64,000 bases of DNA from an uncultured Smithella sp. (GTDB lineage Bacteria > Desulfobacterota > Syntrophia > Syntrophales > Smithellaceae), in contig CAZWCA010000004.1 of NCBI GenBank assembly GCA_964632255.1, forward strand, positions 489-64,488, in the 5' to 3' direction. Below the pieces are notes generated by a model. That model saw only the letters and a list, made by a program, of their open reading frames with translations, had not been told where the DNA came from and searched no databases. The position numbers were made by a program, and so were the translations under genes. Below are positions 1,764 to 32,108 of this stretch, in pieces (the stretch's first letter is position 1; each line of letters opens with the position of its first letter).

Positions 1764-4292
1764 TTACAGATAATCAAGAATTGACATTTTTCCGATCTTC
1801 GCCGCCATGTTGTATGATGCCTCCATGGCTGTCTGTTCCAACTGATAGGACACGATTAATTTAGCCAGATCTACATCTTCGATCCCGGATTTCAATGACG
1901 TTATTTGTTCGTTGAGGGATGTAAGCCTTTCGCTGGTATTAGTTAAGGAGCCGGATTTGGCGCCGACTTTTGTTTGCGCCTGCAAAACCTGTGTTTGAAT
2001 ATTTTTTAAATCATCGATTTGTGCAGCCACTGCCGTTAAGTCATGATTATCCAGTGCAGTTTTCAGGGCTTTAAGCGTTTTTAAAAGATCAACTGTTCCC
2101 GGGCCATGAACTTCAATGGAGTTGACCTGTGGCTTGGTACCCGCTGTAATTTTAAAAGAAACCGTATTGCCGGTATTCCACTGGCCCGACAGAGCGATTT
2201 TTATGTCATCCGTTCCGTCATTATCGGCATCAATGGTCACTTGAGCCGCGCTCATCGAGGTTATCGTCATATGTGGATATAGGGCACTGCCGGTAATGGC
2301 CCAGCTGCCGACGGCAGCTCCCCGGGTAAGAGTAATCGTATCATCCGCAGTCAGACCGGTCCCTGCTCCGAGAACGGATGCGGAAGCAACGGGTCCGTTC
2401 GCCGCGGTAAAGGCGGAAGCCCCGGTAATGTTGTAAACAAAACTGCTGCCTTTACCGACCTGCATGGCGAGCTGGCCGTCGTTGCCCCGGTAGTAGCCGC
2501 CGGCATAACCGTTAACCGTAAACAAGTCATCAGCGGCCAGATTCTGCGTGCCTGCGGTAAAGTTCATCGTTACCCCGTCGCCTAAAGCAATAGAGGTGAA
2601 GGCGGTTGGGGTGAATGCGCCCAAAGCAAGGTTACCACCGGCAGGGTTGGTGACACTGAGGGTCATGGATAGATTGCTGGCTCCGGTCGCTTTATCTGTA
2701 AGGGTGATTTTCCCCGACGAATCGATGGCTGCCGATACCTTGCTGCTGCCGCCGAATGTTGTTTCAATTTGATCCAGCAAATCCTGCACTGTTCCTGCAG
2801 CTGCATCGGCTATCGTAAATGTATCAGGCCCGACAGCAATGCCATCGTGATCAACTCCCGAAATATCGATGGTTGTGCCGTTTTGGACATTGGCGCCGGT
2901 AATTGTGTTCCACACGGTCGCAGTTGTAATGGACAATCCGCCGGACGTATTCGCCACGCTTCCCTGAATTGTCCGGGGCGGCAGTGTTTGCTTGGCTCCC
3001 CAGGTTATACCGCCATCCGTAGATATTTTATAGGTCGCTGTTGTCAATGTTCCGCCATCAATAATTTTTACGGCGTACGTTTTGTTTTCTGTAGCCGTAT
3101 TAGTGCCGCCGGAAGCAACTGTGCCATTGAATTTATTGGCTGCGGATGCTGAGGCTGCACTAACACTGGGCGCAGCGATAGTCACCGGAATTGAAAAAAG
3201 ATCCCCGGCCGCCAGGTGATGAGTTCCCGAATCGTCAAGAGTTAAGTTTATTCCCTCGTCCAGGGGGATGGATGCCTTTGTCGATGCGGCGATGGCGCCG
3301 AAATTCAGAAAACCACCCACAGGATTGGTAATGCTCAGAGTCATCGACAGACTGCTGGCTCCGGTCGCCTGGTCCGTAAGGGTGATTCTCCCTGACGAAT
3401 CAATGGTTGCCGATACCTCGCTGCCGCCGCCGAATGTTGTTTCAATTTGATCCAGTAAATCCTGCACTGTTCCTGTAGCTGCATCGGTTATAGTAAATGT
3501 ATCAGGCCCGACAGCGTTACCATCGTGATCAAATCCTGAGATGTCAATGGTTGTGCCATTCTGGACATTACCGCCGGTAATTGTATTCCACACGGTCGCT
3601 CCCGTAATGGGTAATCCGCCGGCGATATTTGCCATGCTTCCCTGAACAATTTGAGGCGGAAAATTTTGTACCTCTCCCCAGGTTTCGCCGTTATCGGCGG
3701 AGATTTGATAAGTCGCCGCAGCCACTGTTCCGCCATCAATAATTTTTACTTTGTATGTCTTATCTTCTGTTCCCGTGTAAGTGCCGCCGGAAAGAGCTGT
3801 GCCGTCAAACTGATTGGATGCTCCCGTCTCAGCGCCTCCTATGCCGGCAACACCGGAAGTTGCCGAAAAAGGAGCGACATCCGTTCTTGATCCGCCGAAT
3901 ATATAGCTGTCGCCTGACTTGGCATTCATTAGTGATAAAGCGCTGTCAATTAAAGAAGAGGCAATCGAGGCATTGGCATCCATCGTATCCGCCGTCGTTC
4001 CAGTGGCGATAGAGCCGGCCTGGGCAAGAATGTTTTTAATGCCCTCAAGATTTGTATCCGTTAAAGACAACCATGTTTTTGCACTGGTTATATTGGTTTG
4101 GTACTGATCTATGGAGGCCAGGGTGGAAGCATAATTTAATATTTGACCGGCGCCGATGGGATTATCCGACGGCCGGTTGATATTTTTTTGCGTGGAGATC
4201 TTTTCCATCAGTTCCGCGGCTTTTCCCTGGACATTAAACAAACTGCCGGTCAGCGTAGTAAATTTCATGTTTTCCGTAACCCGGTTAATCAT
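1764..4292 (-). CDS. flgL: Flagellar hook-associated protein 3 (hook-filament junction), greatly expanded to 842 aa
   Basis: Flagellin-type N-terminus (RVTENMKF...STQKNINRPSDNPIG) and C-terminus (DLAKLIVSYQLEQTAMEASYNMAAKIGKMSILDYL). It directly follows flgK. AAAGGGGA RBS. Confidence 0.88.
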   Translation of the reverse strand: MINRVTENMKFTTLTGSLFNVQGKAAELMEKISTQKNINRPSDNPIGAGQILNYASTLASIDQYQTNITSAKTWLSLTDTNLEGIKNILAQAGSIATGTTADTMDANASIASSLIDSALSLMNAKSGDSYIFGGSRTDVAPFSATSGVAGIGGAETGASNQFDGTALSGGTYTGTEDKTYKVKIIDGGTVAAATYQISADNGETWGEVQNFPPQIVQGSMANIAGGLPITGATVWNTITGGNVQNGTTIDISGFDHDGNAVGPDTFTITDAATGTVQDLLDQIETTFGGGSEVSATIDSSGRITLTDQATGASSLSMTLSITNPVGGFLNFGAIAASTKASIPLDEGINLTLDDSGTHHLAAGDLFSIPVTIAAPSVSAASASAANKFNGTVASGGTNTATENKTYAVKIIDGGTLTTATYKISTDGGITWGAKQTLPPRTIQGSVANTSGGLSITTATVWNTITGANVQNGTTIDISGVDHDGIAVGPDTFTIADAAAGTVQDLLDQIETTFGGSSKVSAAIDSSGKITLTDKATGASNLSMTLSVTNPAGGNLALGAFTPTAFTSIALGDGVTMNFTAGTQNLAADDLFTVNGYAGGYYRGNDGQLAMQVGKGSSFVYNITGASAFTAANGPVASASVLGAGTGLTADDTITLTRGAAVGSWAITGSALYPHMTITSMSAAQVTIDADNDGTDDIKIALSGQWNTGNTVSFKITAGTKPQVNSIEVHGPGTVDLLKTLKALKTALDNHDLTAVAAQIDDLKNIQTQVLQAQTKVGAKSGSLTNTSERLTSLNEQITSLKSGIEDVDLAKLIVSYQLEQTAMEASYNMAAKIGKMSILDYL
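2145..2342 (-). repeat. Copy of the shared axial-protein insertion module (FlgL aa ~651-716)
   Basis: TITLTRGAAVGSWAITGSALYPHMTITSMSAAQVTIDADNDGTDDIKIALSGQWNTGNTVSFKIT aligns with the FlgK and FlgE copies. Confidence 0.7.
2502..3821 (-). repeat. Tandem in-frame duplication inside flgL, period 678 nt (226 codons)
   Basis: gtttcaatttgatccag... at 2761 recurs at 3439 (offset 678) with roughly 85-90 percent nucleotide identity by eye. The protein units (aa ~158-383 and ~384-597) are co-linear. Confidence 0.9.
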
Positions 4293-4305: not shown

Positions 4306-5997
4306 TTATCGGCCGAGGTTAATCAAAATATCCATCATATCCGAAATGGTTTTGGTCATTCTGCTCGCGGCATTGTAAGCCATCTGATATTTAATCAGAT
4401 TCAACATTTCTTCATCCAGAGAAACACCGGAGAGCTGTTCTCTTTGATCATTCTTCTGAGAAGCTATGGCCTGCTCGCGAGTCAGGTTTGCAGCTGCATT
4501 GGAAACATCCTGCCCGACTTTAGCAATAAATGTGCTGTAATAGCCGCTGATATTTGTCGTGCTGTCTTTTTTGGATAAAGAAAACGAAAGTGTATCGCCG
4601 GCATTCCAGAAACCGGATAAATTTAAAGTGATGTCTGCGGTGCCGTTGTTATCCAGGTCAACAGTCAACCTGCTGTCACTGGACGATAGGACAACTGCAT
4701 TGTCATAGCCGCCATTGTCGGATGCCGCGGCAATTGACCAGGAATTGGCCGTGGCCCCGCGGGTAATCACAATTGGTGAATCTGTATTTTTATAAGCTTG
4801 TCCGGTATTATTAATAATTCCCGTAGCTGAACCTGTAGCGCCTCCCCCTGCCGAAATCTGTCCCAGTGACGCATATATATTATCATCCTGAATTGCGGAC
4901 ATGGCTGCAGCATTATCGCCGTCGGCGTTGGCTGTGGCGGAAGCGGCGATCTTTCTTGTATCAGCGGCTATCGCCGCACTTACCGCCATATCCTTGGCTT
5001 CAGTAGTTTTTTTGAAAAACAAACCGCCGATATTGCCGTCCTGATCATAACCCGCCATATGTTGGGAGTTTACTTTATTGACAATGCTGGACGCTGTCTG
5101 GTTCAGATCATTAATATAAGACGGCAGGGTGACATCTCTGATATTTAATAATCCGCCCAGCTCACCCCCGGTGATTTCATTATTCAATGATGTATTCGGA
5201 TCATTGGTAAAAACGATGTCATTTAAATTAGAATTGTTGACATTCCTCTGCACTTTTAATTGCCAGTTATTGCTTTCTTCCACAAGCGCCCTGCCGCTTT
5301 CAGGCAGATAAATGTACAAAGACCCGTTGCTCTTCTCAACGTAATTAATATCAATCAGCGAGCTTATTTTGTTAAGCAGGGCGGCCCGGTTATCCCGCAG
5401 TGCCGATGCCGTACCACCCGCACTTTCTGCTGTGGCGATCCCGGCATTTAAAGAAGACATGTCTTTGAGATATCCGTTCAGCTTATCAATATCATCGGCT
5501 ATCGTCTGGTTGGCATTATTCTGGATAGTTAATAGCTGATCAGCTCTTTGATTAAAAATATAGGTGAGATTTTGGGCTGCCGATACTACTGAGTCCCTCT
5601 CGGACTGGCCCGAAGGATTGGCCGAAAGATTGTCCCAGGCGCTCCAAAAGGCGCTCAGCGCATCATTTACGCCGTTTCCCTTGCTTTCATTCAGAATACC
5701 TTCAATTTGAGTTAATAAATCCTTACGGGTTTTGGCATTGCCAACGGACGCGTTTTGCGAAACTATCTGCGATTCCAGAAATTTATCATAGACTCTCTCA
5801 ATATCGGCTATTCTTACACCGACCTGCTCCTGGCTCGATGTGGAATCACTCGAACCTACGGCTTCGAATACCGGACGAAGTCTTGTATAGCCTTCGGTAT
5901 TAACGTTGGAAATATTTGCCCCGGTAACATTGATCGCCGCCAGATTACTGAGGATAGCCTGCTGCGCCGTATATAAAACTCTTCCAATATCGCCCAT
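4306..5997 (-). CDS. flgK: Flagellar hook-associated protein 1
   Basis: N-terminus LYTAQQAILSNLAAINVTGANISNVNTEGYTR and C-terminus LDEEMLNLIKYQMAYNAASRMTKTISDMMDILINL are typical FlgK. Synteny is flgN-flgK-flgL. Confidence 0.92.
   Translation of the reverse strand: MGDIGRVLYTAQQAILSNLAAINVTGANISNVNTEGYTRLRPVFEAVGSSDSTSSQEQVGVRIADIERVYDKFLESQIVSQNASVGNAKTRKDLLTQIEGILNESKGNGVNDALSAFWSAWDNLSANPSGQSERDSVVSAAQNLTYIFNQRADQLLTIQNNANQTIADDIDKLNGYLKDMSSLNAGIATAESAGGTASALRDNRAALLNKISSLIDINYVEKSNGSLYIYLPESGRALVEESNNWQLKVQRNVNNSNLNDIVFTNDPNTSLNNEITGGELGGLLNIRDVTLPSYINDLNQTASSIVNKVNSQHMAGYDQDGNIGGLFFKKTTEAKDMAVSAAIAADTRKIAASATANADGDNAAAMSAIQDDNIYASLGQISAGGGATGSATGIINNTGQAYKNTDSPIVITRGATANSWSIAAASDNGGYDNAVVLSSSDSRLTVDLDNNGTADITLNLSGFWNAGDTLSFSLSKKDSTTNISGYYSTFIAKVGQDVSNAAANLTREQAIASQKNDQREQLSGVSLDEEMLNLIKYQMAYNAASRMTKTISDMMDILINLGR
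4573..4776 (-). repeat. Copy of the shared axial-protein insertion module (FlgK aa ~408-475)
   Basis: PIVITRGATANSWSIAAASDNGGYDNAVVLSSSDSRLTVDLDNNGTADITLNLSGFWNAGDTLSFSLS. Confidence 0.7.
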
Positions 5998-6000
5998 AAA

Positions 6001-6549
6001 TCAGCCTACCTTATGTAAGTATGTGCCGTTTCTCTGCCCTGATTTCATTTTTCCGCTCTCCAGATAAACTGTTTCCGAAGATATGATGGAATTGATAAAA
6101 TCCAGGGAGCTTTTAATATTGCCAAGCGAGGCATCCAGCAAATCTTTATTCGCTGCATTTAATGCATTGACTTCCCGTGAAATTATCGACAAATTATCAC
6201 GAATTTCCTCGATTTCTTTCCTTTGTTCAGAACCGGCGTAACCGGCTAATTGGGTGAGTTTGATATCTTTTGTATCCAGATCAAGATTACGGGCGATCTT
6301 CTTCAAGACGGTTGTTCTTGCTTCCCCCAGCATCCGTGCTTTCAGAATTATATTTTCTTTCAGGGCATTGTTCCGATTGAGTTCCTCAAGAACGGGTTTA
6401 TTGAGTATTTTCTTCTCATAAATAATCGTACTTCTCAGTTCCTGATAAACCATCAGTTCTTTTCTCAATATATCTATCAGAGAAGCAAAAATACTTTCGC
6501 AGAAATTTTCCTGTTGCGAGTTCATCAACCCCATACACTGATCGAGCAT
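6001..6549 (-). CDS. flgN: FlgN-like export chaperone for FlgK/FlgL
   Basis: 182-aa helical protein in the canonical position between flgM and flgK. Assignment rests on synteny and composition. The true start may be a later Met. Confidence 0.6.
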   Translation of the reverse strand: MLDQCMGLMNSQQENFCESIFASLIDILRKELMVYQELRSTIIYEKKILNKPVLEELNRNNALKENIILKARMLGEARTTVLKKIARNLDLDTKDIKLTQLAGYAGSEQRKEIEEIRDNLSIISREVNALNAANKDLLDASLGNIKSSLDFINSIISSETVYLESGKMKSGQRNGTYLHKVG

Positions 6550-12365: not shown

Positions 12366-13523
12366 TTACACAAAAAAATTGACCAAATTATCAGCGAAAA
12401 AAGATTGACTTGATAAAAATTCTTCCTTCTTCTGCATAAGCCCTTCTTCCTGAATACAATCAATATAGCCGACCTGATAACCGGTCTTCGCCAGTGAATT
12501 TTTAAGTTTATCGAGATCACTGCTGATTAAATTTTTGACTTCTTCTTTTTCACATTTGATTACGCAATTGAAACTTCCTTCACGAACATTTGCCTTGACC
12601 GCAATCTTCCCTAAGCAATCCAAGTCCAAAAAAATGGCGACTGAGCAGGAGGAAAATTTTTTTATCGCCTCGGGATTTTTTCCCTCCGGAGTAATAAATA
12701 TATCCGCCAAACGAAAACCATCGGCCAGGGCTATTGGAATTTGCAACATCAATCCATTTTCACTCTCCTGAAAAACCGAATTGATTATCTGATGTACTTC
12801 GAGAGTGTTGATTGCGTCATCAGTGAATGACGCGATATTGACAAGCTTCGCCATGATTCCGTCATCAAGCTTCGGGTTTTCCCTTAGAATAGCATTTATG
12901 GAAATTGCTATTTTTTGTAATAAAGTTTTTAAATTATCCTCCTGCGGATTTTCCATTCCCGCTTCAACCATGCCGGCGACAAGTTGTTTCAATGAATTTC
13001 CCTGAATTAAACCGATTCGGGAAACAAACTCTTTTAAAAATAAGGGATTATTCATAGTGCGTGGTGAAAATATGACTTTTTCAAATAATTTTATTAATTT
13101 TTCAAGATCACTTTTAAAAATTGCCGACGCCGGTTCTCCGGAATGAAAAAGTTTGGCAAGTCCGGCGAATTTATCAATAACCTGCAAAAATGATTCGGGA
13201 TTCATCCTCCATTGCAATAATTTTTCATTAATTTGCGCATTATTTTGACTTTTTCTGTCGATAATATTTAAAAAAATTTGCGGCTGCAGATTGTCGACTC
13301 TTACCAGTAGTTTTTCGCCTCTATTCAAAGGAATATCGCTTATTGCCGAAGCCTGCTGATTCTTCCAGGCAAGGATATATTTGTTGCCGGCCAGCTTTTC
13401 CAAAACAGTTGCTTCGATGGTTTCTCCCAAAACCAGCCCCGAAAGAGCTCCATTGGAACGGACTGTTGCTACGTTACTTTCAATTGTGATGTTGTTGGCT
13501 TGAGATATTGATGTGATAAACAT
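12366..13523 (-). CDS. Second FliK-like protein (hook-length-control-type C-terminal domain)
   Basis: The C-terminal SVAIFLDLDCLGKIAVKANVREGSFNCVIKCEKEEVKNLISSDLDKLKNSLAKTGYQVG parallels the canonical FliK motif seen in the 29400..31079 gene (ITLDPPSLGRLEMDVTVRNGKVDVVLVADNKDVQQTLNIHIDKLKGGLQNQGLTI). Confidence 0.55.
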   Translation of the reverse strand: MFITSISQANNITIESNVATVRSNGALSGLVLGETIEATVLEKLAGNKYILAWKNQQASAISDIPLNRGEKLLVRVDNLQPQIFLNIIDRKSQNNAQINEKLLQWRMNPESFLQVIDKFAGLAKLFHSGEPASAIFKSDLEKLIKLFEKVIFSPRTMNNPLFLKEFVSRIGLIQGNSLKQLVAGMVEAGMENPQEDNLKTLLQKIAISINAILRENPKLDDGIMAKLVNIASFTDDAINTLEVHQIINSVFQESENGLMLQIPIALADGFRLADIFITPEGKNPEAIKKFSSCSVAIFLDLDCLGKIAVKANVREGSFNCVIKCEKEEVKNLISSDLDKLKNSLAKTGYQVGYIDCIQEEGLMQKKEEFLSSQSFFADNLVNFFV

Positions 13524-14386: not shown

Positions 14387-15166
14387 TTATTTCTTTATTC
14401 GATAGGGAAAACTAATAGAAATATTACTAAAGCCTTCCTCATTAAAAAAGTTAATTATTGCCTGATACTTATCAAAGAGCATCAGAGATAACAAAATTCC
14501 CTGATTAACGGCATCGGATACTTGATGGGAAACCGAATCCAAATTTTCCATTAAAGCCGCAAAATCAGTTGAAGGTTTGGAATTTATCGAGCTCTTAATC
14601 AATATACTTATGTATTTATCATCGTGATCCGTCTGAATAGTAAATTCTTTAAGCCGGCTTTCCCGCGCCTGAGTCATTGCAAAGCGAATAATTCTCCAAA
14701 AAGCCAATGACAAATCCGCCGTGTTCCCTTTAAATTCGGGAAGATCCTGATCTAATTGAATATCTTTTTTTATTTCATGCTTAAAATCCAGATAAAAATC
14801 AACAAAGCGCATTTCCGCCGCCAGTAATTGGGAAAAATTAATTCTGTCTTCATTTTTTGCGGCAAGTGCATAAAACTTACTTGCAACATCTTTGAACATA
14901 TCGAAGAAAGAATCGGATTCCTGACTGACGGCCCGGATATCCGTCCGGATGCGCTGCAGATCATCAGCCATTCCCGCCGCTACATCAGGATGATTTTCTT
15001 CCATCTTTTTTATGATATTTTCAATACGGCGCTGCAAAAGTTTTGACCTGCCCATTATACCGTTTAAAGGATTGGCAAAATTATGTAAAATACCGGGGAT
15101 GAGTTCATCAATAAAAGTTGCTGAAAAATCTTTCTCCAATGCCCGGTATATTTCGCCTTTATCCAT
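14387..15166 (-). CDS. Soluble HisKA-type protein with H-box but no recognisable ATP-binding boxes (pseudo-kinase or phosphatase candidate)
   Basis: H-box LHNFANPLNGIMGRSKLL. The region where the N-box is expected reads LSLAFWRIIRFAMTQA (no Asn). I found no DxGxG or GxGxG motifs in the C-terminal 90 aa. No TM segment. Confidence 0.55.
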   Translation of the reverse strand: MDKGEIYRALEKDFSATFIDELIPGILHNFANPLNGIMGRSKLLQRRIENIIKKMEENHPDVAAGMADDLQRIRTDIRAVSQESDSFFDMFKDVASKFYALAAKNEDRINFSQLLAAEMRFVDFYLDFKHEIKKDIQLDQDLPEFKGNTADLSLAFWRIIRFAMTQARESRLKEFTIQTDHDDKYISILIKSSINSKPSTDFAALMENLDSVSHQVSDAVNQGILLSLMLFDKYQAIINFFNEEGFSNISISFPYRIKK

Positions 15167-15239: not shown

Positions 15240-15875
15240 CTACATAATAACATAGTTAGTAAAGTAAATATTTTTAACAAAGCCGGCGCCCAGCGTTTTA
15301 TTTAATTCCTGTAATAATTCTTTTTTCAAATTATTTCGTTCTTCAATGGATCTTAAGGCTACGGCGCTTCTCCCTGTTACAGTTTGGTATATTATATTTC
15401 TAATGTCTTCTCTATTTTCTAATCCGGCAAGGTTTTCCGCCGTATTTACCACAAGAACGAAATCACATGCCAGAATTTTGCTTTTACCTGCTTTATCCTT
15501 TAAATCAATTAAAAAATCTTTAAAATTTACGCTTTTTTCTATTACGGGTTGGACTGCAGCCCGTCCATTTACCATATCAGCATCTTGAAATTTCTTCTCT
15601 ATTACAATTGACGCTGTTTCTGTGGGCGCTTTGGATTGTTTTGGTGCGATATTTGTTGTTCGGGCAAAATAAAACCATAAAAAACCAACCATGATGAGAA
15701 CCACGATTACTACAGGAGCAAAAATTACAAGAAGCTTATTTAAAGCCCATTTTTCCGAAGTTACAGGAAGCGGCAATTCCGGGTCAATCGGAATTGTGTC
15801 ATCTATCAAATCTATGTCAGGCAAATCTATATCAGGCAGATTCTCAATGACATCTAATTTTGCTTTTTTTACCAT
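15240..15875 (-). CDS. FliL-family paralogue
   Basis: One TM segment (LLVIFAPVVIVVLIMVGFLWFYF). The C-terminal FliL signature is FKDFLIDLKD...ILACDFVLVV...REDIRNIIYQ...KELLQELNKTLG..FVKNIYFTNYVI. The N-terminus has a LPDIDLPDIDL repeat. Confidence 0.7.
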   Translation of the reverse strand: MVKKAKLDVIENLPDIDLPDIDLIDDTIPIDPELPLPVTSEKWALNKLLVIFAPVVIVVLIMVGFLWFYFARTTNIAPKQSKAPTETASIVIEKKFQDADMVNGRAAVQPVIEKSVNFKDFLIDLKDKAGKSKILACDFVLVVNTAENLAGLENREDIRNIIYQTVTGRSAVALRSIEERNNLKKELLQELNKTLGAGFVKNIYFTNYVIM

Positions 15876-20771: not shown

Positions 20772-21848
20772 TTATCCGAATATCTTAATTCTTTTCTGTT
20801 CATAAACAAATGCCAGTACTTCCGCGACCGCCCGGTAGAGATCTTCCGGTATGGGATGATTTATATCAACCATCTTATACAATACCTGTGCCAAAGGCTT
20901 ATCTTCGATTATGGTCACATCATTTTCCCGGGCGATCTCTTTTATTTTTTCTGCAATCAGGTTTGCTCCTTTAGCCACTACTTTGGGCGCCATCATGTTT
21001 TCGGGATCGTACTTGACAGCCACTGCCAGGTGGGTCGGATTGGTGATAATGACGTCTGCTTTCGGCACTTCGGCCATCATCCGCTTTTTGGCCATTTCCC
21101 GCTGCAGCCGGCGGATCCGGGATTTGATCAGGGGATCGCCTTCGGTATTCTTATATTCATCCTTAATCTCCTGCTTGGTCATCCGCAGGCTTTTTTCATA
21201 TTCCCAGCGCTGATAAATGTAATCGAGAATTGCCAGAATAACGAGTACTATCGCCGTACTCAGAACAATTTTAAAGCATATCCGGCCTAAATAAGCCGTT
21301 ATTCCCGAAATGCCCTGATCCATCAGCAGGATCATATTAGCCAGTTCGCTTTTTATAACCAAATAGGCAACGATGCTGATAATGCAAATTTTGAAGATGT
21401 TCTTTATCAATTCCACGATCGAACGCAATGAAAACAGCCTTTGAAAACCTTTAATGGGATCAATCTTGGAAACTTTTGGAGTTATTGATTCCGAGGAAAA
21501 CATTACCCCGATTTGCAGAACATTTCCCAAAACAGCCGCCACCAGAACGGTCAGCATAAGCGGGAAAAGAATAACAAAGCCTTTAAAAATATAATTACTG
21601 ATCAGGCTGGTCAGACTGGATGGAGTAAGATCGTTTACATTAACATCCCGGAATCCGGAACTCATCAAATCCATGATATTTTCGAGAAAGCCTGCAGCAC
21701 CAAAGTAAAAATAAATCAGACAGGCCACCAGAATGCTTACAGACACAATTTCCGTCGAACGGGCAACCTGGCCTTTTTCGCGGGCTTCATCACGGCGATG
21801 CGATGTCGCCTGTTCGGTTCGTTCCTGATCCTGGTCGTTCTCCGCCAT
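20772..21848 (-). CDS. flhB: Flagellar export switch protein FlhB
   Basis: N-terminal EQATSHRRDEAREKGQVARS, four TM segments, and the autocleavage site ITNPTHLAVAVKYD. Confidence 0.96.
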   Translation of the reverse strand: MAENDQDQERTEQATSHRRDEAREKGQVARSTEIVSVSILVACLIYFYFGAAGFLENIMDLMSSGFRDVNVNDLTPSSLTSLISNYIFKGFVILFPLMLTVLVAAVLGNVLQIGVMFSSESITPKVSKIDPIKGFQRLFSLRSIVELIKNIFKICIISIVAYLVIKSELANMILLMDQGISGITAYLGRICFKIVLSTAIVLVILAILDYIYQRWEYEKSLRMTKQEIKDEYKNTEGDPLIKSRIRRLQREMAKKRMMAEVPKADVIITNPTHLAVAVKYDPENMMAPKVVAKGANLIAEKIKEIARENDVTIIEDKPLAQVLYKMVDINHPIPEDLYRAVAEVLAFVYEQKRIKIFG

Positions 21849-25743: not shown

Positions 25744-26253
25744 TTATTGAATTACGAATTCGGTAAAATATACTTTGATAATTTTTCCTTTTGTCAAATA
25801 CCCGCTTGACCGCAGTGCGATTTCATCCCGTAATCGCTGTTTACCGATAGGGTCCATCATTTCTTTGAAATTTTTTGATGAAAGCAGATCAAGAATGCTA
25901 TCCCGCACTTTAGGCTTAATAATATTTAATTCGTCTACTGTTGATTGATCAGATAATTCAAATTGCATTATTACTTTTAAATATCTTTCTCCTTCATTAT
26001 CATTAAGATTGACAATAAAAGGATCAAGAGGCCAAAATATGGCTGCCGCGGGTTTTGCCGATTCCGCCTGCTTTTTATCTTGAGCAGGCGAATGAGACTT
26101 GAACAGGAAAAAATACGCCCCTGCCCCGCCGCCGCCCAGAACAACCACAGCTATAACGGCGATAATAATCCATTTCATTGCCGAGCCTTTTTTCTTTTCC
26201 AGAGACTGCTCTTCTATTTCTTGTTCGTCTTTTTCATCTTTTGAATCTGCCAT
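25744..26253 (-). CDS. fliL: Basal-body associated protein FliL
   Basis: One TM segment, then DPFIVNLNDNEGERYLKVIMQFEL...KPKVRDSILDLLSSK...GKQRLRDEI...VYFTEFVIQ. Confidence 0.92.
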   Translation of the reverse strand: MADSKDEKDEQEIEEQSLEKKKGSAMKWIIIAVIAVVVLGGGGAGAYFFLFKSHSPAQDKKQAESAKPAAAIFWPLDPFIVNLNDNEGERYLKVIMQFELSDQSTVDELNIIKPKVRDSILDLLSSKNFKEMMDPIGKQRLRDEIALRSSGYLTKGKIIKVYFTEFVIQ

Positions 26254-26554: not shown

Positions 26555-28681
26555 TTATTGTTTAATGCTCATCAATACCGACATCATTTGATCCTCGGTT
26601 GTTACAACTTTAGCATTGGCCTGATAAGCCTTTTGCGCTGTAATCATTTTAACGAACTCCGAAGCGATATCCGTGTTGGACATTTCCAGTGTACTTGGGG
26701 TCAGTGAGCCCATTCCGGAAGCACCCGGTATATTGCGGAGTGATGATCCGGAGGTGATGGTTTCACCAAAAAGATTTTTTCCCAATTTACTGAGCCCCCA
26801 TGGATTGGGAAATGAAGCCAGAATAAGTTGCGCAAGTTCAGATGTCTGACCGTTGGTAAAAAATCCGCTGATTTTGCCGTCGTTATCAATGGATAATGAC
26901 TTTAGCTGACCGGAGGCGTAACCATCGGCGCTTATGGAACGGGTAACCGAAGAGGAAGAGTATTGCGTAATATCAAGGGCGCCATCTCCTACCAATTTCC
27001 ATTTTATATTCCCTTCAGTGCCAATTGTCGCCCCCCCGTTAAGAGGCGGAGTGGTATAAGTAAGTGTAATATCATTAATGGCTGAGGGTGTATTGGTCAG
27101 TGTGAAGACCGCCGTGTCTCCGTTAGCCCAAACACTGGTAGGGGTTAAAGTTATATCTGTAGTACCGGTACCGTCGAGACTGATCGTGACAGGTTCTGTA
27201 AGACCGGGGGAAGTCACAATGGCTTTAGCATATACGCTACCGCCTTCTACACGCCAGGCCGCCCCATCTCTGGTTATCCGTATTTCTCCTGTCTGATAAA
27301 TCATGCCCGGCCGGTCAAGTGTAACTGTTGCCGTAGACGCATCGGGAACATTATTCAGTGTAAATGTGGCCGTATCATCGTTCGCCCAGGTGCCGGCTAA
27401 AGCTAAATGCGCATCTGTTATACCATCACCATCAAGATCGACATTCACTGTTGTCGCGTTGGCGGAAACAATATTGGCATTGGTGTATCCGCCTTTGTTA
27501 GAGATTGACCAGGAGTTGGTGCTGATATCATCGCACTTTAAAGTCATTGTACCGGTCAGAGAAACCGCTCCCGGATGATCCAGAGCGGCAGTTGCGGTAG
27601 CAGCGTGAGTCAAGCTTAAAGATACTGTGCCATCGGCTCCGGCAGTTGCCGGAGTAAAATGTAAATCAGGGCCACCCACACCGTCGAGATTAATGTTGAT
27701 TACACCGCCGACATCAGTTAAAGTGGCTCCGGCAAAGCCGCCGTCATTGGAAAGGGTCCAAGTTCCGGCAACCTCATCCCATGAGCAAACTAAGTTACCT
27801 ACGCTGTTTTTATAAATATTTGCCGCCTGATCTACAATAATTCCGCCTGGTACAGTAATTCCGCCCGTCGTTCCGGCAAGAGCAGCTGAACTGGCGTGAG
27901 AAACAGTACCGACACTGCTCACTGTATTATGCTCGGCTGTGATCGTACTGGAGGTTCCCGTGTACAACCCCGTGCAAATACCATCAGAATTAAAAATAAA
28001 TCCGTTGGCGGAAATTGAATTTACCGGGCTTGAATCCAGAAAGCATTGCACCGACCAGCAACTGGCCGAATCATCCGCTCCGGCATATGCTGTTTTAGTA
28101 AAAGTGGTATTCAACGTATGTTTGGCACCCAGAGAATCATACACGGTTTGCGTCGTGGTATATTTTCCGCCGGTGGCGGTTGTGGCATTTAAATTAGCGC
28201 CTAGAGAAACGGTTGTGGTCACAGCAGGCGCAGATTGCAGCCCCTGCAGATTAATATCTCCCAGAGGACTCAACACACCGTTTATAATCATTTGCCCCTG
28301 AACTTTATAATCATTGATATCCACCAGCAGACCATCGGAATTCAAATGAAACGCACCTGCGCGGGTATAATAAGTACCGCCTTCGGCGTCGTTTACCATA
28401 AAGAAGCCGTCCCCATCAATGGCCGTGTCCGTAGCGTTGCCTGTGGACTGAAATGATCCGGCGCCGAATTGCGTCTGAACTTCGGAAACGGCAACACCAC
28501 GCCCCACCTGCATTGTTCCCGATGCACCGCCCGAAATACTGGAACTCAATACATCTCCAAAGAACGTCTCGCCGGATTTAAAACCGATTGTATTCACATT
28601 AGCCAGATTGTTGGCAATAACGTCCAGTTGCTTGGAGCTGGCGCTTAATCCCGATATCCCCGCCCATAGTGCACTGCCCAT
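26555..28681 (-). CDS. flgE: Flagellar hook protein, expanded (708 aa)
   Basis: N-terminal SGLSASSKQLDVIANNLANVNTIGFK, DGDGFFMV, and C-terminal LEMSNTDIASEFVKMITAQKAYQANAKV. It lies downstream of flgD. Confidence 0.94.
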   Translation of the reverse strand: MGSALWAGISGLSASSKQLDVIANNLANVNTIGFKSGETFFGDVLSSSISGGASGTMQVGRGVAVSEVQTQFGAGSFQSTGNATDTAIDGDGFFMVNDAEGGTYYTRAGAFHLNSDGLLVDINDYKVQGQMIINGVLSPLGDINLQGLQSAPAVTTTVSLGANLNATTATGGKYTTTQTVYDSLGAKHTLNTTFTKTAYAGADDSASCWSVQCFLDSSPVNSISANGFIFNSDGICTGLYTGTSSTITAEHNTVSSVGTVSHASSAALAGTTGGITVPGGIIVDQAANIYKNSVGNLVCSWDEVAGTWTLSNDGGFAGATLTDVGGVININLDGVGGPDLHFTPATAGADGTVSLSLTHAATATAALDHPGAVSLTGTMTLKCDDISTNSWSISNKGGYTNANIVSANATTVNVDLDGDGITDAHLALAGTWANDDTATFTLNNVPDASTATVTLDRPGMIYQTGEIRITRDGAAWRVEGGSVYAKAIVTSPGLTEPVTISLDGTGTTDITLTPTSVWANGDTAVFTLTNTPSAINDITLTYTTPPLNGGATIGTEGNIKWKLVGDGALDITQYSSSSVTRSISADGYASGQLKSLSIDNDGKISGFFTNGQTSELAQLILASFPNPWGLSKLGKNLFGETITSGSSLRNIPGASGMGSLTPSTLEMSNTDIASEFVKMITAQKAYQANAKVVTTEDQMMSVLMSIKQ
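27092..27835 (-). repeat. Three tandem copies of the shared insertion module inside FlgE (aa ~283-530)
   Basis: Copy A: LVCSWDEVAGTWTLSNDGGFAGATL...VININLDGVGGPDL. Copy B: LKCDDISTNSWSISNKGGYTNANIV...VNVDLDGDGITDAHLALAGTWANDDTATFTL. Copy C: IRITRDGAAWRVEGGSVYAKAIV...VTISLDGTGTTDITLTPTSVWANGDTAVFTL. Confidence 0.75.
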
Positions 28682-28714: not shown

Positions 28715-29377
28715 TTAATTTGTTGGTTTAGTTATTGATATAATTTTCGAGAAGGCCACGTCCTGACCGTTTATGGTCAGATAGGCCGTGTCATCTTTAA
28801 ACGTAACTCCGGTAACTGTGCCGGAAATTAATGTCGTGGCGGTCACGGCCTTTCCACTTTTATCCTGGGCGCTGATATCAAAGGTGTATTCGCCGGGACT
28901 GACACTGCTGGTATTCCATGAAATAAAATTGATGCCCGAGCTCATGTTGCCCAAGTCGGCACTGCCCACTTCGGCGCCGTTTGAGTCATAAATTTTAAGA
29001 GTTCCGCTGGCGATATCCGAAGGCAGACTGAAAGAAATATCGGTTTGGGAACCGCTGACGGTAATGGTATTTCCGGAAGCGGTGGCTACATCGCCGATTA
29101 AGTCCGACATTTGGGCATTGCTGAATGCCTGCAGATAAGTAGGCAAGGAGCTCATCGTCGTATTTAAGTTGCTCAATTGCTGCAATGAAGAAAACTGCGC
29201 CAGTTGAGCGGCAAAATCTTTACCTTCCATAGGATTCAGCGGATCCTGGTTTCTTAATTCGGCCAGAAGCATGGTCATAAATTCATCCTGCCCCAAAGAA
29301 GAGGCACTGCCTGTTGATTTTGAACTGCTTGTTGTACCGCTCGTGAGACCTGCTGTTACATAATCTACTGTCGTCAT
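28715..29377 (-). CDS. flgD: Hook capping/scaffold protein FlgD
   Basis: ATG 29377 has a GGGGAGGGAAA RBS; the ORF extends to 29407. Contains LGQDEFMTMLLAELRNQDPLNPM and a FlgD Ig-like C-terminal part. Confidence 0.93.
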   Translation of the reverse strand: MTTVDYVTAGLTSGTTSSSKSTGSASSLGQDEFMTMLLAELRNQDPLNPMEGKDFAAQLAQFSSLQQLSNLNTTMSSLPTYLQAFSNAQMSDLIGDVATASGNTITVSGSQTDISFSLPSDIASGTLKIYDSNGAEVGSADLGNMSSGINFISWNTSSVSPGEYTFDISAQDKSGKAVTATTLISGTVTGVTFKDDTAYLTINGQDVAFSKIISITKPTN

Positions 29378-29399
29378 TTTCCCTCCCCATATTGCCCTT

Positions 29400-31079
29400 T
29401 CAGGCAAATAAACTAATATTATCCGTTGATATTCCGGATACGGTTCCGGATCTCATGGAAATAGTTGCGCCGGCCGGAACTTTTTCCTCAGGCTTATTCT
29501 GTTGATTGTTACCGTTTTGCCTTGAACCACTTTCCTGATAGAATGTCTGCCGGCTGAAATTTTGTTGATATTCACCCCGGTTGTCCTGCATGAACACATC
29601 ACAGCGGTCAATTGTCAGTCCCTGATTTTGCAGACCACCTTTTAATTTATCGATATGAATATTCAATGTTTGTTGAACATCTTTATTATCGGCAACCAAT
29701 ACGACGTCTACCTTTCCATTGCGGACGGTTACGTCCATTTCCAGTCTCCCCAAAGAAGGCGGATCTAACGTAATTTTTATCCGTCCGCCTTCATTTACCG
29801 CCGCTTCTTTAATTTCACCTGTTATCTGCCCGACTAGTTTATCAGCGGAAACATCATTGATTCTCTCATTTCCTGCGTAATTGCCGGCGAATGTATTAAC
29901 CGAACCCAAAGGAACCTCTTCCCTGCCTTTTTCATTCGCAATATTTTTTCCTTTTTGTTCAAATTTGATACCGGATACTTCTCTTGCGACTACCTGCACC
30001 TTTTCCGCCTGAAATTTATTTCCGGAAGCAGGATTGGTGGTATCCGGACGCTGTTGTTTTTCTGCAAAATGAATACTTTTCTCTTTGCCCATTTGAGACT
30101 CTTTTATTTCAGGCATGCTTGAACTGATTTTAGTGCCGGATTCAGAATCTTCATTTTTTGCATCTTCAGGCGGAACAGCTTGACTTATTGAATTTTCTTT
30201 GAAGGTTTTAGATGAATCAAGGTTGATTTTATCAAAAACTTTCTCTGCAAGCTGATCGGGATTTTCCAAGTAATTCATCATCTGCTGTTTTACTGTTTTT
30301 TCAGAATCGTTTATTGCAGACTCCTTGTCTTTATTCTGCATGTTAAAAGCAGTTTCGCTATCGGCAGCTTCTTTTTCCAGCCTTGACTGAAAGTTGGCGT
30401 TATCAGCTTTTACTGCATCAAACTTATTAGCGGCTGTATTTGTCGATTCCATTTTCATTATTTCAATTTGAGCTTCTTCGGAAGATTGATCCCCTTGAAG
30501 AAAGTTATTCTTCACTGTTTCCAAAGTCATTAAACCTGGCTGATTCAAGGCTGCATTTTGATTGTTTAGTGTTGCTGATTCATTTTTTTCATTGCTTTTT
30601 TCTGATTCCGGTTTTTTTCCCGTAATTGCAGATAACGCATCCGCTGCATTGCCTTTGCTTAAAACTTCCTCTTGATTGTTGACTTGTTCAACGCTTGCCG
30701 AAAATAAATGATTTATTACTCCCGTATCTGTTTTATTATTTAACCGATTCATTTCATTTAACAGATTATGAACGGAAATATCTTTTTGACCTTTTTGTTC
30801 CTCGTCTATGCCAGCCGTTTCCCGGGACAATGCCTGTTCAAGACCAATATTTATCTTTGCCGTATTGTCACAATCAGAATGTTTATCGGCCTGAGACATT
30901 TGCTGATTCAGGAAGTGAAGAAAAGGAACAAGATTATTCACATCTTCATCTTTTGCGGATTGATCATTTGCATTTCTAATCTTGTCAATAGAAGAACCGG
31001 TCATTTTAAACAAGCCTGCAAACTCAAGTCCTTTATTTTGAGCATTTTCTCCGGATGTTGCCGGTATTATCTGTCCCAT
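29400..31079 (-). CDS. fliK: Hook-length control protein FliK
   Basis: Low-complexity N-terminal ruler. C-terminal Flg_hook motif GRIKITLDPPSLGRLEMDVTVRNGKVDVVLVADNKDVQQTL. Position is upstream of flgD. Confidence 0.88.
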   Translation of the reverse strand: MGQIIPATSGENAQNKGLEFAGLFKMTGSSIDKIRNANDQSAKDEDVNNLVPFLHFLNQQMSQADKHSDCDNTAKINIGLEQALSRETAGIDEEQKGQKDISVHNLLNEMNRLNNKTDTGVINHLFSASVEQVNNQEEVLSKGNAADALSAITGKKPESEKSNEKNESATLNNQNAALNQPGLMTLETVKNNFLQGDQSSEEAQIEIMKMESTNTAANKFDAVKADNANFQSRLEKEAADSETAFNMQNKDKESAINDSEKTVKQQMMNYLENPDQLAEKVFDKINLDSSKTFKENSISQAVPPEDAKNEDSESGTKISSSMPEIKESQMGKEKSIHFAEKQQRPDTTNPASGNKFQAEKVQVVAREVSGIKFEQKGKNIANEKGREEVPLGSVNTFAGNYAGNERINDVSADKLVGQITGEIKEAAVNEGGRIKITLDPPSLGRLEMDVTVRNGKVDVVLVADNKDVQQTLNIHIDKLKGGLQNQGLTIDRCDVFMQDNRGEYQQNFSRQTFYQESGSRQNGNNQQNKPEEKVPAGATISMRSGTVSGISTDNISLFA

Positions 31080-31481: not shown

Positions 31482-32108
31482 TTAGTCAGTTTGACGACCT
31501 CCGTTGCGGGTTATCTCTTTCGTGATCTCGGCAGCTTTTTGTGGTGTAATATATCCCCAGACGGCACCCGCCTTATCTTTCTTCATATTCATGGTAAGTC
31601 CCGCTGCTGTCTTTATGTCCAGTTGCTCCAGCATTTTTCCGGCCTTTGCCGGAGGAGCAGACTCATAAACTTTCGCCAAATCCTTGTATCTCTTTGTTTC
31701 CGCGGCTTTGCCGGCATCCAGGGATGAAGTTAATTTTTCTTCCTGACTTTTTAATAATGCAATCTTATCGGTTATTTCTTTTCTTAATGCAAGAAGGCGC
31801 TGCTCATCCGCGCGAAGATTACTTTCCCGAATATCCAATTCATTCTTCCTGGCTATAAGTGCAGCCGCTAAATCTTTCTCTTTAGACAGATCATCATTGG
31901 AAATCCCATTCGCCGTCTGTTCCTGGGGCGCAGGGGCAATTGCCGAAGGAAGAACCGATGCGGGCCGCTGTTGCGCCAGGGCTTGGCTGGTAACAAGTGA
32001 TGTTGCAGGGAGAATATCCTGCTTTTTGATAAGGCCGATTACTAATGCAACTTTAGTAAGAATCAAAATTAATATCAGTATCTGGGCGCCGATTAACAGT
32101 TTTTTCAT
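31482..32108 (-). CDS. YlxF/MotE-like flagellar protein (MgtE-N-like C-terminal region)
   Basis: N-terminal TM segment, coiled coil, and C-terminal YESAPPAKAGKMLEQLDIKTAAGLTMNMKKDKAGAVWGYITPQKAAEITKEI. It occupies the ylxF slot between fliJ and fliK, as in the Bacillus fla/che order. Confidence 0.55.
   Translation of the reverse strand: MKKLLIGAQILILILILTKVALVIGLIKKQDILPATSLVTSQALAQQRPASVLPSAIAPAPQEQTANGISNDDLSKEKDLAAALIARKNELDIRESNLRADEQRLLALRKEITDKIALLKSQEEKLTSSLDAGKAAETKRYKDLAKVYESAPPAKAGKMLEQLDIKTAAGLTMNMKKDKAGAVWGYITPQKAAEITKEITRNGGRQTD

Follow-up and report, generated by a model that had tools for sequence, protein, structure and literature searches.

We report that the flagellar hook protein FlgE encoded in a 64,000-nucleotide stretch of DNA from an uncultured Smithella sp. 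(GenBank assembly GCA_964632255.1, contig CAZWCA010000004.1, positions 489 to 64,488 of the forward strand; this whole stretch is referred to as the window) contains a module of approximately 86 amino acids (aa) three times in tandem within its domain D2, and that single homologous modules are present in the hook-associated proteins FlgK and FlgL encoded in the same window. It thus seems that one removable outer coat, lacking in a close relative, is common to the hook and its junction. Our preferred reading, to which we assign a probability of roughly 0.55, is that the three FlgE modules constitute an accessory outer layer of the hook, that the junction proteins FlgK and FlgL share the same coat, and that its role is mechanical.

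The flgE gene (26555..28681, minus strand) encodes a 708-aa protein that we identify as the hook protein on the basis of its domains and gene context. Specifically, the open reading frame (ORF) includes the Pfam domains Flg_bb_rod (aa 8-35), D1 (aa 87-134), FlgE_D2 (aa 162-255) and Flg_bbr_C (aa 664-705), all above the cut-offs, and scores 295.9 bits with TIGR03506 of NCBIfam (cut-off 70.25). Sequence matches in the PDB to solved FlgE structures (e.g. 5jxl, E 9e-48) cover the two ends of the protein only, and the full-length FlgE model matches 5jxl and 6k9q in Foldseek (E 1e-13). The neighbouring genes encode FlgD (28715..29407) and FliK (29400..31079), with FliL, FliM and FliN downstream, giving the synteny FliK-FlgD-FlgE-FliL-FliM.

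A preliminary description of the window, made from the sequence, had placed three repeated units in FlgE at 27092..27835 (aa 283-530), and this is borne out by a self dot-plot, by BLASTP between the units and by hidden Markov model (HMM) searches. The dot-plot, which had been proposed as a check, has the three parallel diagonals: using BLOSUM62 and a 30-aa window, the score was 88 at an offset of 86, 53 at each of the offsets 88 and 170, and 39 at offsets 83-84, while the maxima of 50 shuffles averaged 37.7 (standard deviation 4.0) and reached at most 49. Units 2 and 3 are 40% identical (E 4e-20), and unit 1 has 29% identity both to unit 2 (E 1e-9) and to unit 3 (E 3e-7). The period of approximately 75 aa first suggested was, however, too short; it is 86-88 aa, the module measures approximately 86 aa, and the HMM places the units at aa 269/282-362, 361-447 and 450-533. 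Unit 1 is a divergent copy that lacks both the W-A-N-x-D-T-A motif, which had been ascribed to every unit, and the LD[HR]PG opening.

All three copies are encoded on the minus strand. Copy 1 (aa 269-360, HMM core 282-362; 27602..27877) was detected by the HMM with an E-value of 7.9e-19 and by BLASTP against unit 2 (1e-9), and is a singleton when the modules are clustered. Copy 2 (aa 361-447; 27341..27601) has an HMM E-value of 2.4e-33 and an AlphaFold model, and copy 3 (aa 450-533; 27083..27334; HMM E 9.9e-35) is the counterpart of the single unit in FlgE proteins of 510 aa. We looked for a DNA-level self-match within flgE and found none, so the duplications are old; moreover, the identical 708-aa FlgE is present in contigs of at least five separate sequencing-run assemblies, which argues that it is not an assembly artefact. 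The repeat is old and real.

As suspected at the outset, the units are not the ordinary FlgE D2 domain (PF07559): the D2 match ends at aa 255 (profile positions 10-108 of 142), and there was no Pfam or NCBIfam match to aa 256-560. Alignment with orthologues of 403-405 aa (P0081, P0043 and P0112) reveals a clean insertion of 296 aa (aa 238-533; 27083..27970, minus strand), comprising a stalk/linker and the three modules and containing 17% Thr and 4% Lys, Arg and Glu taken together. It is bordered by the D2 strands F-x-F-[ND]-x-x-G-x-x-T and A-x-x-D-I, which form a D2 hairpin, and the insertion site is within the part of the protein that can be aligned with domain D2 of FlgE from Salmonella and Campylobacter. 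The N-terminal stalk/linker (aa 238-268; 27878..27970, minus strand) has a GxYTGTxxxxT motif that is kept in all module-bearing FlgE proteins, and in the model it is predicted to form strands at aa 236-244 and 248-254, followed by a low-confidence segment (aa 265-294).

To characterise the module, 146 units were collected from 120 FlgE homologues and 86 of them were aligned to give a profile and the input for modelling. The AlphaFold2 model of unit 2 (predicted local distance difference test score, pLDDT, 92.1; predicted template modelling score 0.82) comprises seven beta strands and a pair of one-turn helices. In the full-length FlgE model (pLDDT 78.6) units 2 and 3 exceed 90, unit 1 reaches 59-76 and the linker at aa 265-294 stays below 50. 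With FlgE numbering, the 86-unit alignment has two invariant residues, W391 and D423, and Y399, L416, G418, G420, W432 and T437 are kept in at least 90% of the units.

The module matched no family in Pfam or NCBIfam, and when the 86 members were scanned singly against Pfam only a sub-threshold scatter was obtained, the commonest match being Big_5 (6 of 86 members, best E 0.0019), with Invasin_D3 also appearing. A bacterial Ig-like domain (Big_x or invasin type) was rejected since all these Pfam matches are sub-threshold and Foldseek gave no such neighbour. A PDB sequence search with the insert gave no match, and one with the 86-unit profile gave seven non-significant, non-flagellar matches (best E 0.033). 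Foldseek with the module model found no neighbour in the PDB (best E 0.59, template modelling score at most 0.38, no FlgE chain among the matches listed) or in BFVD (best E 0.46), while as a control the full-length FlgE model did recover FlgE structures. The D3 region of Salmonella FlgK was also considered as a remote relative and rejected (4.6 bits, and no FlgK chain in Foldseek). As modelled, and as judged against the PDB and BFVD, the module is an unclassified and undescribed small all-beta domain of approximately 86 aa. We found no paper on the hook proteins of Smithella or Syntrophales or on this module, which is a candidate for a new Pfam family and a good target for structure determination.

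The Asp/Gly-rich loop of copy 2, DLDGDGITD (aa 415-423; 27413..27439, minus strand), lies between strands 5 and 6 according to the translation and the model. A DLDGDGxTD core had been ascribed to all three copies; unit 2 has it, but the corresponding loops are SLDGTGTTD in unit 3 and NLDGVGGPD in unit 1. Among 184 modules the family motif is [SD]-L-D-G-x-G-x-x-D, with Ser (85 of 184) or Asp (83) at position 1, Leu at position 2 (159), Asp at position 3 (148), Gly at position 4 (156), a mixture of Thr (73), Ser (27), Asp (26), Ala (18) and Asn (16) at position 5, Gly at position 6 (142) and Asp at position 9 (179). Of the 184 modules, 29 fit the pattern [DN]x[DN]x[DN]Gxx[DE], a number that rises to 104 when Ser and Thr are also permitted. 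Hence the earlier idea of a DxDxDG-type calcium loop fits unit 2, which is canonical, but neither units 1 and 3 nor the greater part of the family. In this genome the FlgK and FlgL modules also have canonical loops (DLDNNGTAD and DADNDGTDD, respectively), and Ca2+ binding is plausible, judging from the loop residues, for the subset of modules with the full Asp/Asn set.

With respect to the calcium-binding hairpins of FG-GAP and integrin proteins, the modules of unit 2, FlgK and FlgL are alike in having D-x-D-x-[DN]-G-x-x-D between two beta strands with hydrophobic flanks, and unlike in that there is no homology and that in most modules Ser or Thr takes the place of Asp at positions 1 and 5. 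Homology to FG-GAP (PF13517/PF01839) was rejected, as alignment of the 86-unit profile with the FG-GAP protein P0132 using hhalign gave a probability of 8.6% over 42 columns. FG-GAP proteins had been matched by a three-unit profile only via the Asp/Gly loop, and these matches were gone with the 86-unit profile.

The homologous modules in the two hook-associated proteins are located in flgK and flgL, which follow flgN (6001..6549), and the gene order flgN-flgK-flgL was confirmed. FlgK, hook-associated protein 1 (563 aa; 4306..5997, minus strand), is recognised by FlgK_D1 of Pfam (1.7e-56), by TIGR02492 (305.5 bits, cut-off 170.75) and by PDB entry 9go6 (1.4e-30), and its module occupies aa 390-476 (4570..4830, minus strand; HMM E 3.5e-26, profile positions 2-84 of 87). 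FlgL, hook-associated protein 3 (842 aa; 1764..4292, minus strand), has Flagellin_N and Flagellin_C in Pfam and scores 200.7 bits with TIGR02550 (cut-off 127.2); its module, which belongs to an FlgL-type subfamily, is at aa 645-717 (2142..2360, minus strand; HMM E 1.9e-21, profile positions 11-84 of 87). Pairwise identity among the five modules encoded in this genome is 17-40%.

Separately, flgL has its own unrelated tandem duplication (2634..3143 and 3312..3821, minus strand) with 80% nucleotide identity over 510 nucleotides, each copy having an Asp-box-like motif (YQISADNGETWG and YKISTDGGITWG, respectively) and a weak match to BNR of Pfam. The length of FlgL in relatives varies (295, 402, 497, 842, 917 and 1057 aa), and four contigs with an identical FlgK (L044-L047), which come from separate sequencing-run assemblies, end within flgL or approximately 120 bp past its end, probably due to the internal repeat of flgL. 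An exact look-up of the window FlgL gave no record.

The distribution of the module was determined by an exhaustive HMMER search with the three-unit profile against 1.84 billion cluster representatives, which gave 45 proteins at E≤1e-3. Judged by their termini and Pfam domains these were FlgE, FlgK or FlgL proteins, FG-GAP-type proteins and a few large repeat proteins. After re-scoring with the 86-unit profile, with at least 55 profile positions required, the FG-GAP proteins and most of the repeat proteins dropped out, and the matches were FlgE, FlgK or FlgL together with six fragments of unassigned type and one borderline non-flagellar protein, P0144 (E approximately 1e-3); no flagellin among the re-scored matches carries the module. 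A word-indexed protein search with the insert alone gave nothing, probably because Thr/Gly/Ala-rich words filled the limit of 8000 candidates, while the exhaustive search and full-length queries succeeded. The module is so far almost confined to flagellar axial proteins of Syntrophales and related Desulfobacterota.

Clustering of the 184 modules gave an FlgL-type group with the hallmarks Y-P-x-M, D-A-D-N-D-G and S-F-x-I-T. All single-copy FlgL modules belong to it, the FlgL module of the window grouping with six other FlgL modules; so does the first unit in FlgK proteins with two modules and in several FlgE proteins with three (P0003, P0035, P0068 and others). The presence of FlgL-type modules inside FlgE and FlgK implies that modules moved between the three genes, and the clustering points to gene-to-gene shuffling among flgE, flgK and flgL. 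Relocation of the FlgL module to FlgK wherever FlgK has two was rejected as a rule, as one genome has two modules in FlgK and none in FlgL and another has two and one; what survives of this idea is that the first module of two-module FlgK proteins is of the FlgL type.

Copies were counted in the best 120 FlgE homologues from Syntrophales/Smithella, and module count and FlgE length track each other exactly: 13 proteins of approximately 403 aa have no module, 78 of approximately 510 aa have one, 19 of 582-626 aa have two and 10 of 700-745 aa have three. Similarly, the FlgK length classes of approximately 462, 560 and 665 aa correspond to none, one and two modules, and copy numbers range from 0 to 3 in FlgE and from 0 to 2 in both FlgK and FlgL. 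Unit 3 of the window FlgE shares 60-66% identity with the C-terminal units in other FlgE proteins and unit 2 is 63-71% identical to second-from-last units (P0002, P0004, P0003), and such positional counterparts across species indicate that the duplications predate speciation. Fitch parsimony on a neighbour-joining tree (403 core columns), which is rough, gave at least 26 copy-number changes with an inferred root state of one copy, and the scattering of copy numbers over the tree is evident in spite of its roughness. Taken together, comparison of the sequences indicates that modules have been duplicated, lost and moved among the three genes repeatedly. A longer variant is P0130, a 1114-aa FlgE of a metagenome-assembled genome (MAG) of Desulfobacterales, with three widely spaced modules (aa 314-382, 505-594 and 723-802); the spacing suggests further, different domains between them.

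The nearest relative of the window FlgE in the core region, P0043 (82% identity), is a 405-aa protein without modules and with the same fliF...fliK-flgD-flgE synteny. The corresponding close relative (Logan sample SRR22334944, contigs L048 and L049) is approximately 84% identical at the DNA level and its FliF, FliG, FliI and FlgG are 92%, 94%, 95% and 92% identical, respectively, to those of the window. Its FlgE (405 aa), FlgK (462 aa) and FlgL (497 aa) all lack the module, these counts being taken from two contigs whose origin from one genome is inferred from matching synteny and identity. Compared with the FlgK of 563 aa in the window, its FlgK lacks the module and approximately 14 flanking residues. 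The FliK of this relative has 55% identity to that of the window, far below the neighbouring genes, and its flagellin (272 aa, no outer domain or module) is encoded in the region 14593..16733 of L049, just beyond flgL and a TPR gene and followed by flbT and flaF.

Per genome, the window has three modules in FlgE and one each in FlgK and FlgL; JANYAY010000010.1 has one in each of the three proteins; a contig of ERZ27297441 has two in FlgK and one in FlgL, with one in a tentatively linked FlgE; and CAIVQG010000035.1 has three in FlgE and one in FlgK, with an FlgL of 1057 aa. JBHKXB010000002.1 has two in FlgK and none in FlgL, a contig of ERR14964774 has none in either FlgK or FlgL (295 aa), and the close relative in SRR22334944 has none in FlgE, FlgK or FlgL. 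In this small sample the presence or absence of the module is largely, not strictly, concerted across FlgE, FlgK and FlgL.

How might such modules act? With the array placed in the D2 hairpin, each hook subunit would show three modules on the exterior of the tube. D2 is the outermost conserved ring in solved hooks (PMC5097172, PMC5069557), so the array is expected to stand out from the surface of the hook or to lie on it. FlgK and FlgL would each hold one homologous module in a variable outer region, and with homologous modules in the hook and in both junction proteins the layer is probably one and continuous. In analogy with the D3/D4 domains of Campylobacter, we consider it most likely that extra subunit-subunit contacts thicken and stiffen the hook and the junction, with the number of modules as a tunable parameter; the outward display, the module-module contacts and their mechanical effect are all inferred. 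The near-invariant [SD]LDGxGxxD hairpin would serve as a turn in the structure, with possible calcium binding where the Asp/Asn set is complete. A more far-reaching version, in which a "coat brick" of new fold is shuffled among flgE, flgK and flgL and interlocks, possibly via calcium, into a sheath whose copy number of 0-3 tunes stiffness to the habitat, is speculative and in our judgement rather unlikely; if true, it would amount to a portable brick sheath with its thickness set by copy number and the stiffness of the joint fitted to the habitat.

Several observations weigh against an accessory outer layer with a mechanical role. The prediction for unit 1 is poor and the unit may be disordered in part, and hooks of this clade are known here from sequence and a predicted monomer model alone. 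JBHKXB010000002.1 combines two modules in FlgK with none in FlgL, and the close relative does without the whole layer, so any mechanical benefit must be conditional. Moreover, the window does not extend to the flagellin gene of this genome, the matching region being just past the left end of the window.

The alternatives cannot be separated from one another by sequence data alone. That the module loops bind Ca2+ and render the rigidity of hook and junction calcium-dependent is possible though doubtful: the loops of unit 2, FlgK and FlgL fit the DxDxDG spacing, Asp is frequent at positions 9 and 3 as is Gly at position 6, the loop links two strands as a hairpin like the integrin/FG-GAP sites, and FG-GAP proteins were drawn in through this very segment; yet Asp/Asn fill positions 1, 3 and 5 in the 29 modules only, with position 5 usually Thr, Ser or Ala, FlgE units 1 and 3 are not canonical, the hhalign comparison gave a probability of 8.6%, and the conserved D-G-x-G turn could be purely structural. 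The modules might instead be a recognition or adhesion layer and bind, not one another, but a partner such as a methanogen cell in syntrophy, a glycan, or the surface of a mineral or polymer. The host clade, Smithella/Syntrophaceae, lives in obligate syntrophy, and flagellar proteins of another syntroph are said to contact methanogens, reportedly in work of Shimoyama et al. from 2009. The inferred exposure of the module, its Thr content, its copy number differing between close relatives and the weak Big_5 and Invasin_D3 matches to Ig-like adhesins would agree with such a role, but hook and junction make up very little of the flagellum and sit close to the cell, which makes them a poor site for an adhesin, and no ligand-binding family or motif was detected, the Pfam matches all being sub-threshold; we regard adhesion as unlikely.

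To a similar degree improbable is a variable surface cover that evades or decoys phages, predators or grazers and has no mechanical role. The many copy-number changes among the 120 FlgE proteins, the contrast of no and three units between genomes of approximately 84% nucleotide identity, the low identity among modules of one genome and their shuffling between genes could all be read in this way, although known flagellotropic phages mostly target the filament and not the hook, and the 60-71% identity of positional counterparts between species suggests purifying selection. Neutral accretion, i.e. a D2 hairpin that tolerates inserts so that modules come and decay with no selected function, would account for the degenerate look of unit 1 and for a close relative devoid of modules, and Salmonella FlgE with the Campylobacter D3/D4 is motile, so D2 does tolerate large inserts (PMC5069557). 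Against this stand the confidently folded units 2 and 3 and their conservation across species, the invariant W391 and D423 and the further positions conserved to at least 90%, the retention of one module type in three different proteins and its occurrence in at least one copy in 107 of 120 FlgE and approximately 112 of 120 FlgK proteins, and we find this explanation very unlikely. Finally, repeats generated by mis-assembly of metagenomic reads can practically be dismissed: the source is of metagenome type and other contigs of the locus break at or in the repeated flgL, but the three units are 26-40% identical with no DNA-level self-match, the same 708-aa protein recurs in the separate assemblies noted above, and ten other three-unit FlgE proteins exist.

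The window as a whole represents one large region of flagellar and chemotaxis genes. The gene order on the minus strand is flgL-flgK-flgN ... flgI-flgH-flgA-flgG-flgF in the first part and fliA-flhG-flhF-flhA-flhB-fliR-fliP-fliO-fliN-fliM-fliL-flgE-flgD-fliK-fliJ-fliI-fliH-fliG-fliF in the second, and after fliF there are a sigma-54 regulator pair, motAB and cheA/cheB. The related loci in reference genomes are all from MAGs, assigned to Smithella, Smithellaceae, Syntrophaceae or Syntrophales and in a few cases to Desulfobacterales. The cluster has two FliK-like genes (Flg_hook of Pfam; 12366..13523 and 29400..31079) and two FliL genes (15240..15875 and 25744..26253), and two ORFs on the minus strand have no Pfam domain (14387..15166, 259 aa, and 31482..32108, 208 aa), of which the latter is located between fliJ and fliK and has 82% identity to the copy of the close relative. 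In three of the other contigs a small ORF of 92-104 aa is present upstream of flgF (L044, 42..320; L049, 3792..4076; L050, 3815..4129); it matches only the FlhB family (Bac_export_2) and is distinct from the full-length flhB at 20772..21848 of the window.

Our findings leave the basic picture of the flagellum unchanged. The series of FlgE proteins with none to three modules provides a natural dosage series for studying the mechanics of outer hook domains, and the modules are a clear example of domain shuffling between machine parts that must fit together.

Among solved hooks, that of Campylobacter jejuni (5jxl, 5az4) is like the present case in having extra domains in the middle of D2. Its FlgE domains D3/D4, as well as D3 of Caulobacter, are placed in the same general region as the array, "in the middle of domain D2" (PMC5069557), and in Campylobacter they form outer rings, add inter-subunit contacts and robustness, and upon deletion give fragile, broken flagella (PMC5097172); Campylobacter FlgK has also diverged in step with the hook (PMC5691160). 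There is, however, no likeness in sequence or fold: the module model has no Foldseek match to 5jxl or 5az4, and the full model matches through the core. The D3 folds of different clades are stated to differ completely (PMC5069557). Furthermore, D4 is nested in D3 and the number of domains is fixed in Campylobacter, whereas here there are 0-3 serial tandem copies, and the reuse of the module in FlgK and FlgL is also unlike Campylobacter. Caulobacter crescentus FlgE has a single clade-specific extra domain, D3, at almost the same place in D2, but the inserted domains are unrelated and no tandem array or sharing with the junction is reported there (PMC5069557). The hypervariable outer domains of flagellins, among them giant flagellins with internal duplications (PMC6248924), offer another parallel in that the terminal helices are conserved while the exposed middle grows by insertion and duplication and thickens the structure, with the difference that the filament protein is concerned there and the hook and junction here. 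Thus, a clade-specific domain inserted in FlgE D2 is already known from two solved cases, both confined to FlgE and fixed in number, while new here are a module for which neither a family nor a structural neighbour was found, its serial occurrence in 0-3 copies among near relatives, and its reuse, with apparent exchange, in FlgE, FlgK and FlgL.

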